This document shows positions 16,881 through 47,039 of a stretch of 64,000 nucleotides of DNA, one piece after another; position 1 is the first letter of the stretch; each line of letters starts with the position of its first letter. Both the position numbers and the translations under genes were made by a program. Source of the stretch: Eledone cirrhosa (taxonomy: Eukaryota); assembly GCA_964016885.1 (NCBI GenBank), contig OZ024742.1, forward strand, positions 303,056,001-303,120,000, read 5' to 3'. Below the pieces are notes generated by a model. The model was given only the letters and a program-made list of their open reading frames with translations, did not search any database and was not told where the DNA came from.

Positions 16881-17116
16881 TATTATTATTACTATTATTA
16901 TTATTATTATTCTTTACATTCCTTACATTAAACTAAAACTATGTTGACAATCTTTTAATAATGTCTTCCTTGTGAAATTTGTGGTCTTGTTTTGCTTAAC
17001 TAATGAATGTATATATATATATATACATATATATATATATATATATATATATATACATATATATATATATATATGTCAGCTTACAATACTAGCGTATCTA
17101 TCTATCTATCTATCTC

Positions 17117-19981
17117 AGGTTCTAGCTGCGGATAGGAATAGGAAGGACAGGGAGCTAATAGATAGAGTAGAAGAGGCAATTAGAAGCGGCGACGTGGCCA
17201 GAGTGCTAGCGTCGAGAACGGCTTTGAGCCAGTTTTTCGACGCGAAGCACGAAGGCTGCGTTGTCCGAAGTAAAATACGTGCTCTAGGGAACGAGGGGAC
17301 CAAAGCTGTTAGCTGGGCCCGCGTGACAGAGGCCAACAGTGGAACTAAATCCACCATCCGGTCTTTGCGAGACCTGGATGGACGGGCGATTCTTGAGCCT
17401 AAGCGGATGTGTGAGGCCTTTCAAAGGCACTTTGCCCGACTGTTCGGGGGGTGGGGAGCCGGTTGGGAACGTGGACTTCGGTCCATACATCGACGGCCTG
17501 CCGCGCCTCTCGGACAGGGAGGCGAAGTCCTGCGAGGAGCCGATTTCGGCCGCTGAGATAGAGGACGTGCTGAGCCAATGCGGCAAACGCAAATCCCCGG
17601 GTCTCGATGGTCTTCCTTACGAATTATATCTAGCTATGCCGGACTTGTTCCCCGATCTCCTCGAGGCGGTCTACTGCAACTGGCAACAGAACGGGAGAAT
17701 TCCCTGTACTTTGACCAAGGGCGTAGTCACGCTAGTGAGGAAGGACGAGAACAAGGGGGACGAAATAAGTAACTTCAGGCCCATAACTCTGCTAAATACA
17801 GAGTTACAGATTTTGGCCAAGGTGCTAGCAAATAGGTTGGCGCTTGTCGTGGGCAACCTGGTGGGAGATGCGCAGACATGCGCTATCCCGTCCAGGTCCA
17901 TCCATGACAACCTCCACCTCATGCGATACATCATAGAGAGGGTTGGGAACGAACCCGGCTTTGGTGGGGCTCTGATCAACTTGGATCAATCTAAGGCGTT
18001 CGATAGGGTCGACCATGGTTACCTGGATGCGGTGCTTGCGGCGGCAGGCTTCGGACCCGTTTTCAGGGGCTGGATCACTGCTATGCACAGCAGCCGCATC
18101 TGCTCTAGGGTCAAGGTGAACGGCTACCTCTCGGAGCCGTTCAAAATCGCGCGGTCCATCCGACAAGGGTGCCCTCTCTCCTCCCTTCTGTATGTGTTGA
18201 CTCTCGAGCCACTACTGCGGAAGTTGGAGTTGTTGCAGGGCATCCCTTTGGAACCGGGATTGCGGAAAGCGGTGTCGGCCTACGCCGATGACGTGACAGT
18301 AATGGTGTCGACGGCCTCCGAAATCGAGGCGGTCGGCACCTTACTGGAGGAGTACTAAAAGTTCACAGGGGCTAAGCTGAACCGGGACAAGTCGATCGGT
18401 TTGCAACTCGGCACGTGGAGGGGCAGACCGATGCCCTCCAATGGCGTCGTCGGACGCTGGACGGAGGGCCAGGTGAAGTTGCTCGGGGTCTGGTTCGGAC
18501 CGGACCTCCAGGTGGAGAAGAACTGGGCGGAGGTTACGAACAGGGTGTTTGCACTGACCCAGAAGTGGGCCAGTTGCAAACTATCCCTGAAAGGTCGGGC
18601 GGAGGTGGCGAACACCTACATAGCGTCCGTCATCTACTACCGCCTGACCGTAGTGCCCTGCCCAAGGGAAACCCTCACCAAGATGGAGCGCGCGCTCTTC
18701 CAATTCCTTTGGAAGAGGCGGGCTCCTATGGTGAGGAGATCCATCTGCTGTCAACACCCTTCGAAAGGAGGGCTGGGGATGCCGTGGCTAATGATGCGTA
18801 AACACGCATTAACGCTACGGCACCTCTACGTATTCCTCACCGGACAACCGGTGTGGGCCTCGTTTGTGAGACGAACCTTTCCCAGACTCGTCTCACTCAC
18901 CGAGCTGCAATCCTGGGTCAAGCAAAGACCGAGAAAACTGGGCGCCTGGCACACTGAGTATGTCCAGGCGCTCACCGCCCTCTGGCAGGCGGATCCGGTT
19001 ATCAGTGGAGACTCCACCGCAACATTCTATAGAGGGCTGGTACGCAGCAGGTGCGACGAGGCCCTCGGAGAAGCCCTAGACATGGAGGAGGACGAACTGG
19101 CCAGCCTGTTCGGTAGGACATTCAGCCCGGGACCTATGGACAACTTCCAGAAGTCCCTGGCCTGGCAGTGCTACCGAGGAGCCTTACCCGTTCGAGAAAG
19201 GCTCTACAGACACGGGCGCCCGGGTAGGGACCCCGCCAAAAAGATCTGTCCCAGATGCGTGTGCGACGAGGAAACCGTTGCACACGCATTGGTACACTGC
19301 TCGGGCGTAGCCGATCTGTGGGGCTATGTCGAACAACTGCTGTCAAGGGTGGGACCGATCCGGTTGACCACCGAGTCTATTGTAATGATCAAGCCGCCTC
19401 CCTCCTTCAAAGATGAAGCAGAGGCGGTGTTTCTGTGCGTAATAGCCATGGCGAAAGAGGTTGTATGGTGGACGCGTCTGAAAGGACTGAGGTCAGGCAC
19501 CTTTCTCTCTGGCCAACAAGTGGTCCGTTTCTTCCGATATCATTTCGGAAGAAGGATCAGTATGGAGAGAGAGGTGCTGCACCCCAGTCGTTTTTATGAA
19601 AGGTGGGTGAAAGTGGCGAGAATGGCCCGTGTGAATGGGCCTTCTCTTTACATGAGCCTGTAGGTGGAAAAGAGGAAGGAACGAGGGAGCACCCCCTCTC
19701 TGTGCTCCTGAGGAAAAGGGTTGCACACTTTTTTCGGGGGTGTGTGCGACCCCCCAAGGCGCCTCCTCTCTATTAAGGATTTTGTTATAAATTTTATTTT
19801 TTGTTATATTTTATAACAAAATCCTCTATTGAGGATTTTGTTATAATTCTATTTTTTGTTATATTTTATTTTATTTTTATATATTGTTATTGCCTCCTCC
19901 CTATTGAGGACGCCTTGTTTTGTAAACTCCCCCCATTGTACTTGTCCCACTTTTGATGCCCTTGTGGCAAATAAAAGAAAC
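17117..19981 (+). mobile_element. Tx1-like LINE copy 1 (subfamily A, 5'-truncated within ORF2)
   Basis: Starts directly after (TATC)n, mid-ORF2 (VLAADRNRK). RT motifs KSPGLDGLP, FRPITLLN, DQSKAFD, RQGCPLS and YADD; C-terminal CPRC-x8-H-x4-C; stop at 19663; AATAAA at 19970. Has a frameshift and a premature stop (18356). Confidence 0.93.
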
Positions 19982-46910: not shown

Positions 46911-47039
46911 TCTATCTATCTATCTATCAAATCTATCCATCTATCTATCTATTTATAGCAATCTATGTATGCATATTATTATTTGGTTCCCTGTCGGTTC
47001 CGACGACGGCTGTTGAAGTTTTTTTTCCTGTGGGCTGAA

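Follow-up and report, generated by a model that had tools for sequence, protein, structure and literature searches.

Stacked LINEs at TATC-type microsatellites in the octopod Eledone cirrhosa, and related families at (ATT)n targets

Here we describe a head-to-tail stack of six long interspersed nuclear elements (LINEs) in a 64,000-nucleotide stretch of the Eledone cirrhosa genome (assembly GCA_964016885.1, contig OZ024742.1, positions 303,056,001 to 303,120,000, forward strand). The whole stretch is called the window, and positions are counted from its first letter. The elements very probably belong to the L1/Tx1 group and insert in one orientation into TATC-type microsatellites, duplicating about 11-19 bp of target, likely by a nick in the GATA strand and pairing with the 3' end of the element RNA. 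We document the structure and orientation of the stack, the target bias of 5' and 3' flanks, the duplications, the arrays of mixed subfamilies and a set of relatives found at (ATT)n.

A six-element array and its insertion target

By self-BLAST, scans for repeats and inspection of the junctions, 17117-46912 is seen to be filled by six collinear + strand LINEs (E1 to E6, Table 1) of the type with an apurinic/apyrimidinic endonuclease (APE) and a reverse transcriptase (RT). All seven junctions contain (TATC)n. This is far above chance, since a TATC 8-mer occurs in only 30 of 11,760 background intervals of 34 nt (0.26%). The rest of the window, 34 kb outside the array, holds a single (GATA)3. The array is without an N gap, and the sole gap of the window lies at 8617-8816.

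The six elements represent four subfamilies. E1 and E2 are 97.0% identical and E5 and E6 98.3%, while identity between the subfamilies is 62-84%. E1 and E2 start at about positions 2995 and 1598, respectively, of a 5.8-kb full-length relative, and TATC is found at both truncation junctions. The two also differ in the type of their 3' untranslated region (UTR); that of E1 has an internal duplication that is found in the unlinked copies L237, L242 and L244 as well. An indel of 22 bp in open reading frame (ORF) 1 separates E5 from E6. Decay is uneven, with breaks in E1, E2, E3 and E6, two internal deletions in E4, and an intact ORF2 beside a frameshifted ORF1 in E5. The first 18 nt of the right junction match the end of junction 5 and are likely the target-site duplication of E6. 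An earlier reading of the bare sequence (the original prediction) had claimed six + strand elements with seven (TATC)n junctions, in about four subfamilies of unequal decay, and this description is borne out.

Table 1. Elements and junctions of the array, in positions of the 64-kb window
Feature	Position	Strand	(TATC)n run	Description
Left junction	17095..17116	+	17095-17114	(TATC)5 target remnant; repeat scan, junction reading
E1	17117..19982	+		5'-truncated, E1/E2 subfamily; ORF2 from about aa 292, frameshifted
Junction 1	19983..20118	+	19983-20034 and 20087-20118	Compound (TATC)13-(TC)n-(TATC)8; not remarked in the original prediction
E2	~20116/20119..24295	+		5'-truncated within ORF1; several ORF2 frameshifts
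Junction 2	24296..24315	+	24296-24315	(TATC)5
E3	24316..30113	+		Full-length, 5.8 kb; ORF2 broken
E3 ORF1	24649-26403	+		Long ORF1 frame, CCHC knuckle
Junction 3	30114..30169	+	30114-30169	(TATC)14
E4	30170..35117	+		Both ends kept, two ORF2 deletions, most decayed; 95.6% to nearest sampled relative
Junction 4	35118..35185	+	35118-35185	(TATC)11-TATA-(TATC)5
E5	35186..40985	+		Full-length, youngest (99.7% to unlinked copies); ORF1 frameshift near 36095, CCHC knuckle
E5 ORF2	37331..40768	+		1145 aa from Met: APE with catalytic motifs, RT (YADD), C-terminal zinc finger
Junction 5	40986..41093	+	40986-41093	About (TATC)27, one variant unit
E6	41094..46912	+		Full-length; E5 subfamily, but a different sub-lineage; both ORFs broken
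Right junction	46913..46956	+	46913-46928	(TATC)4 and degenerate TATC units

Flanks were compared across the 3.0-Gb host genome. Searches with the 3' ends of the E5, E3, E4 and E2 types returned 959, 885, 2456 and 1792 candidates, which are not copy numbers. The best 40, 20, 20 and 20 matches, respectively, were taken at 9.7 kb each, with copies of the window excluded, to give a sample of 100. The background consisted of 20 arbitrary 10-kb stretches of the genome (200 kb), from which the 11,760 intervals were drawn. A copy was scored for a TATC 8-mer within 30 nt of its 5' junction.

The 8-mer is present at the 5' junction of all 34 full-length copies and of 40 of the 66 truncated copies. GATA on the element strand was found at the 5' junction of 0/100 copies. 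In a separate sample of E5 5' ends, which includes the E5 of the window, 27 of 30 loci have 5' TATC. The original prediction had proposed that the flanks of genomic copies be tabulated; the 8-mer occurs in 74/100 5' flanks and 75/100 3' flanks. Kojima (2015) regards an element as target-specific when the same repeat is found in more than 20% of flanks (PMC4494074).

The 3' terminus has a set order in each subfamily, in which AATAAA-GAAA is followed by a fixed dinucleotide and then by TAT (98/100). The dinucleotide is TC in the E5 type (37/40), TA in the E3 type (16/20), GA in the E4 type (18/20) and CA in the E2 type (19/20). The junction itself reads TATC in 93/100 copies and TATA (TATATAT) in 6/100. 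In the background, (AT)8+ runs are about 46-fold commoner than (TATC)3+ runs (230 vs 5).

Locus-specific target-site duplications, that is, non-repeat letters common to both flanks, were found in 24/100 copies, against 190 of 9,900 shuffled pairs (1.9 expected). The duplication is 11-19 bp long in 20 of the 24, and the base that precedes it is C in 21. The two flanks of a locus thus share letters far more often than expected, and the repeat is therefore target DNA that was duplicated on insertion. At the core of the target is approximately C^TAT(C/A)TAT (the caret marks the cut), a less strict requirement than (TATC)n alone. The initial few bases that look like target are probably contributed by the 3' end of the element itself. 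Three further claims of the original prediction stand on these counts: an oriented preference for (TATC)n, target left on both sides of an insertion, and a TATC that is not the element's own 5' end.

The head of the element was also inspected. The sequence TCTCTATC lies just before the aligned 5' end in 5/6 full-length E3-type copies (L200, L203, L204, L208, L209), and E5 begins with the target-like ATCTA. An element head that resembles the target may aid 5' joining. One E2-type copy, L247, is located within a (TACC)n/(CCTA)n run, an off-type target, and has a 27-nt flank match 322 nt upstream of the aligned boundary.

Several points weigh against this account of the target. The sample is made of the best-scoring matches to copies of the window and hence leans towards young copies, and a few of its loci are adjacent and so not independent. 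The 5' 8-mer is missing from 26 of the 66 truncated copies; in about 11-12 of these 26 a duplication is present but degenerate or displaced, and no 5' target trace lies within 7 kb in about 14 of the 100 copies. In pure TATC runs a duplication is indistinguishable from the repeat, and the informative loci are only 24/100.

Arrays across the genome

More than half of the sampled copies (55/100) lie no more than 250 bp from a family member, which is upstream in 31 and downstream in 37. If sites were used uniformly, a rough estimate would put this rate at about 8% (range 3-25%). Opposite-orientation neighbours were found in none of the 100 copies; the arrangement is always head-to-tail. By best BLAST label, neighbour and sampled copy differ in subfamily in 43 of 68 cases. 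The linkers between neighbours are 13-158 nt long, the shortest being about the length of one duplication.

The copies of the window have unlinked relatives that resemble them more than their own neighbours do. Among relatives of at least 2 kb, this holds for 11/11 in the case of E1 and 10/11 in that of E2. For E5 and E6 the counts are 27/29 and 15/29, in a set picked by likeness to E5. The closer unlinked relatives, together with the differing truncations and indels, indicate independent insertions, and they point to a window array built by five or six such insertions over at least four subfamily waves. Growth by repeated independent insertion, as the original prediction proposed, is supported for each copy of the window. 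A single tandem duplication as the origin of this array is excluded by the subfamily identities and the closer unlinked relatives.

The window array is the long tail of a genome-wide habit and not a special locus. With about 6,000 candidate 3' ends and a neighbour on a given side in 31-37% of copies, on the order of 20 arrays of at least six elements are expected, a figure that is calculated and not counted. Copies occur on many different scaffolds, and the scaffold that carries the window is 379 Mb long, with the window at 303 Mb. A special or telomere-like locus is ruled out by the 55/100 sampled copies that adjoin another member. The comparison with telomeric TRAS/SART and HeT-A/TART arrays in the original prediction was thus overstated, given this frequency of stacking.

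The E5 type is young, and its ORFs are often kept. The 1145-aa ORF2 is kept in 13/22 full-length copies of this type and both ORFs in 9/22. Among full-length copies of the other types, ORF2 is kept in 1/4 (E2), 0/6 (E3) and 0/2 (E4).

Relatives with (ATT)n targets, mechanism and alternatives

Relatives of these elements were found in 5 of the 20 arbitrary stretches (L251-L270), where they occupy 12.5 of 200 kb, or very roughly 6%. Two of them end in (ATT)n and define families A and B. Searches with their 3' ends gave 2464 and 2413 candidates, of which 30 copies each were examined. The 3' junction has (ATT)n in 25/30 and 28/30 copies (53/60 in total) and TATC in 0/60. In the 3' region, A and B share 67-73% nucleotide identity with the TATC families.

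Fourteen longer loci of the ATT type were taken. Eight copies are of sufficient length, and in all eight (ATT)4+ lies upstream at a distance of about 5.7-5.9 kb; in the six shorter ones ATT is at the junction in two, absent in two and ambiguous in two. Several of these loci adjoin other ATT-type copies in head-to-tail stacks. (TATC)3+ occurs in 0/14. Conversely, the 27 family 3' ends that lie upstream of TATC copies comprise 20 with TATC, 7 with TATA and 0 with ATT. This shows two target-segregated groups, TATC and ATT, and mixing was never seen in the loci examined.

An abundant short dispersed repeat stands beside several A and B copies (L257, L261, L326-L399). A dispersed repeat of about 190-210 bp is found in the window at 8817-9105 and 15790-16905, in tandem at 16351-16828 and beside (ATT)n runs; the same repeat flanks several insertions of the ATT families.

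The endonucleases of the two groups are very alike, with consistent differences at 11 positions and, besides these, at residue 194 of a hairpin loop. The loop, T189-S199, aligns with T192-S202 of L1. Residue 194 is Ser or Thr in 7/7 TATC rows and Ile in 6/6 ATT rows. The hairpin loop affects nicking in L1 endonuclease (L1-EN) grafts (PMC1950540), and because of that influence residue 194 is a candidate determinant of target specificity.

The direction of the switch was addressed with trees. In a careful tree the four TATC subfamilies come out as a single clade (96/96). In a quick tree TATC is nested inside the ATT families, with a Shimodaira-Hasegawa-like approximate likelihood ratio test (SH-aLRT) value of 97, and in that tree only the ATT target appears ancestral. 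In the careful tree, a branch that sets the ATT rows to one side appears in 43% of the bootstrap replicates. An approximately unbiased (AU) test went against an ATT-only clade (p = 0.004), proteins without a determined target lying inside that clade.

These results lead us to a broader proposal, which we offer tentatively and at somewhat less than even chances. Octopods would carry an undescribed and still-active radiation of microsatellite-specific Tx1 elements that, with its relatives, makes up several percent of the genome. One lineage would have switched from (ATT)n to (TATC)n via few endonuclease changes, with residue 194 (Ile vs Ser/Thr) as the candidate. The two groups would form separate self-renewing arrays genome-wide, and the TATC arrays would multiply GATA repeats.

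The steps of insertion can be outlined on the model of target-primed reverse transcription, which is established for APE LINEs. The APE domain would nick at about 5'-ATAGATA^G-3' in the (GATA)n strand, opposite C^TAT(C/A)TAT on the top strand. The RNA end, AATAAA-GAAA-NN-UAU(C), in which each subfamily has its own NN (TC, TA, GA or CA), would then pair with the 3' end that the nick releases. The top strand would be nicked in turn, 11-19 nt downstream, which would create the duplication, so that every inserted element is flanked by a usable site at either end. The linkers could then receive elements of other subfamilies in later waves.

Targeting might instead be achieved mainly by pairing between RNA and DNA. 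Under such a scheme nicking is lax and merely AT-preferring, only sites that can pair with a (UAUC)n tail are completed, and a change of tail is enough to switch from ATT to TATC. We consider this unlikely, although several findings fit it. The first four to five junction bases are near-invariant (TATCT 93-100%) and decay follows; at L236, L092, L085 and L205 the junction opens with TATC and little TATC target comes after; and the endonucleases of the two groups are as similar as described. However, the six TATATAT junctions copy non-TATC target straight after TAT, which indicates that the RNA-derived part is short. The C before the duplication (21/24) is found also with elements whose dinucleotide is other than TC, which points to a nick at a fixed position, and the Tx1L endonuclease (Tx1L-EN) is sequence-specific in vitro (PMC1950540). 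A nick by an endonuclease with its own target preference, assisted by pairing of the RNA end, is the reading that we prefer. It is scarcely credible that the (TATC)n runs belong to the element as its tail and head and come from transcription or insertion with no target preference. That idea could draw on the fixed NN-TAT(C) end of every subfamily and on the TCTCTATC of the E3 type, but TATC also adjoins copies truncated at scattered internal points, and the non-repeat letters shared by the two flanks of a locus exceed expectation. Both observations rule out TATC as an own 5' end or a long tail.

The stack could also stem mainly from tandem duplication, with flanking TATC runs exchanging unequally, or from an assembly error, with decay coming later. 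Pairs of this kind do exist elsewhere in the genome. The adjacent copies L069/L070 show 100.0% identity and have the same junctions, L086/L087 reach 99.91% and have an ORF2 break in common, and the copy that follows each of the truncated L093, L193 and L228 has the same truncation point. Such identical neighbours reflect tandem duplication, a junction-copying insertion or an assembly error. A minority of arrays elsewhere has thus been lengthened by tandem duplication too, or the assembly errs there, which counts against insertion as the whole explanation. The order of the window array is taken from the assembly. In raw reads from restriction-site associated DNA (RAD) under the same species label, 38 reads contain a joint of 3' end, TATC linker and truncated copy at another locus, so such joints are not solely a product of assembly. 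For the window itself duplication or misassembly is very improbable, given four subfamilies at the divergence noted, differing truncation points, the two 3' UTR types of E1 and E2, the indel between E5 and E6, the closer unlinked relatives of each copy and a gap-free array. The adjacent copies L020/L021 likewise share identity, truncation point or junction letters.

Clade, known systems and other features of the window

The ORF2 of E5 has Pfam matches to Exo_endo_phos (33-238), RVT_1 (520-766) and zf-RVT (987-1043), the last below the curated cut-off. Its best PDB match is human L1 ORF2 (E 3e-52), with R2 at 1e-20. The APE catalytic residues and the RT motif are intact, the catalytic motifs having been aligned with human L1 ORF2. 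For ORF1 no Pfam match, no Transposase_22 and no RNA recognition motif (RRM) were detected; a CCHC knuckle, C-X2-C-X4-H-X4-C, is visible by eye in the ORF1 proteins P0003 and P0004. ORF1 with RRM/CCHC is tied to the Tx1 clade in PMC5203782. The copies have the traits of APE-type elements of the L1 group, with 5' truncation in 66/100, an AATAAA-GAAA 3' end and duplications of mostly 11-19 bp. An Rfam search of 15000-50000 of the window gave no match.

Two metagenome elements, L272 and L278, carry U2 small nuclear RNA (snRNA) directly 3' of their poly(A) end and are Keno-like in this respect (U2 matches at L272:4675-4885 and L278:5815-5977). The E5 ORF2 matches them at 405 and 465 bits, respectively, and human L1 ORF2 at 181 bits. 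The element is of the L1/Tx1 group and probably of the Tx1 clade, the latter placement being based on similarity to these Keno-like anchors. In trees that include no vertebrate L1, the octopod clade is not sister to the Keno-like rows and the deep nodes are without resolution. Another metagenome APE-RT element, L289, has a U1 match about 1.7 kb past its ORF2 match (L289:9202-9356).

The nearest homologs with a species name are a protein of Argonauta hians (67%, RT region) and one of Acanthosepion pharaonis (51%); the only other with such a name is a Closterium protein. Relatives in a metagenome scan are distant, mostly at 21-34%, and a TATC run was found at 0 of the 18 metagenome loci (of 55) that were checked for microsatellites. 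A large group of relatives at about 50% identity (P0007-P0083 and clusters), many of them fragmented copies on long ENA contigs, forms with a cuttlefish protein the sister of the octopod clade. Near-identical words occur in sequencing runs of several other organisms (shares 0.26-0.49). No RNA run was among those listed, which carries no weight as to expression.

Microsatellite-specific Tx1 families are known, as the original prediction noted. Kibi and Koshi of teleost fish insert into (TC)n and (TTC)n, and crocodilian Tx1 families into (TTCC)n/(TTTC)n (PMC4494074, PMC3812793). The elements described here resemble them in being APE elements of the L1/Tx1 group, in oriented insertion into microsatellites and in having relatives on different repeat units. 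They differ, in a comparison by description only, in their mollusc host and in their (TATC)n and (ATT)n targets, which are not polypyrimidine; the 3' junctions reported above read TATC or TATA. They share the ORF2 layout of Keno, a U2 snRNA-specific Tx1 element (PMC4640811, PMC4494074), and differ from it in that the target is a microsatellite.

An octopus genome is reported to hold 13 recently active L1-Tx1 families with 421 near-full-length insertions that average about 5.4 kb (PMC13282606). The main text of that report has 0 occurrences of the word 'target', and no target preference or array is described in the text examined. L1-Tx1 also appears in Octopus repeat annotations, likewise without a described target in the text examined (PMC8967140). 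The families of PMC13282606 may include the TATC family, a kinship judged by description.

Tandems of transposable elements (TEs) that arise through insertion-site preference have been described by McGurk and Barbash (10.1101/158386), and tandem SINEU-3 around a target-site duplication (PMC4494074) and tandem Utopia in U2 arrays (PMC4640811) are also on record. Unlike these, about half of the sampled copies here are stacked, at dispersed internal microsatellites and with subfamilies mixed. Unlike the telomeric HeT-A/TART/TAHRE and TRAS/SART elements, they are not confined to chromosome ends and show no sign of a host function such as telomere maintenance. Waldo and Mino belong to the R1 clade and Dong to the R4 clade, and these clades are other than that of the TATC and ATT families. 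All three are microsatellite-targeting non-LTR elements, on ACAY (Waldo), AC (Mino) and TAA (Dong) (PMC3812793). The unit of Dong is the same TAA/ATT as that of families A and B.

No TATC/GATA- or ATT-specific Tx1 family was found in the searchable literature, in which no search was aimed at ATT and which leaves Repbase, Dfam and Figure 3 and the supplements of PMC4494074 outside its scope. Within that literature, (TATC)n, (ATT)n and a mollusc host are added to the short list of microsatellite-specific Tx1 LINEs, and tandem formation driven by insertion is shown at high frequency. How APE endonucleases change their target was described in 2013 as not well understood (PMC3812793). The close TATC/ATT pair, with about a dozen endonuclease differences and intact young ORF2s, makes target switching testable and offers a direct test of whether the protein or pairing of the RNA tail decides the target. 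GATA microsatellite markers in these animals may often lie at LINE junctions with repeated flanks.

Outside the array, the window contains a fragment of a PIF1-like helicase at 7034-7612 on the - strand (Pfam PF05970, E 5e-35), possibly a Helitron remnant. A decayed RT fragment at 10103-10639 on the + strand, 34% identical to the E5 ORF2, belongs to another LINE family. The segments 53963-54172 and 54695-54918 form an inverted repeat pair, 87% identical over about 220 bp, which is possibly a miniature inverted-repeat transposable element (MITE). Units of about 970 bp, 89-95% identical, are repeated in tandem over 61297-64000, in an array that runs past the end of the window.

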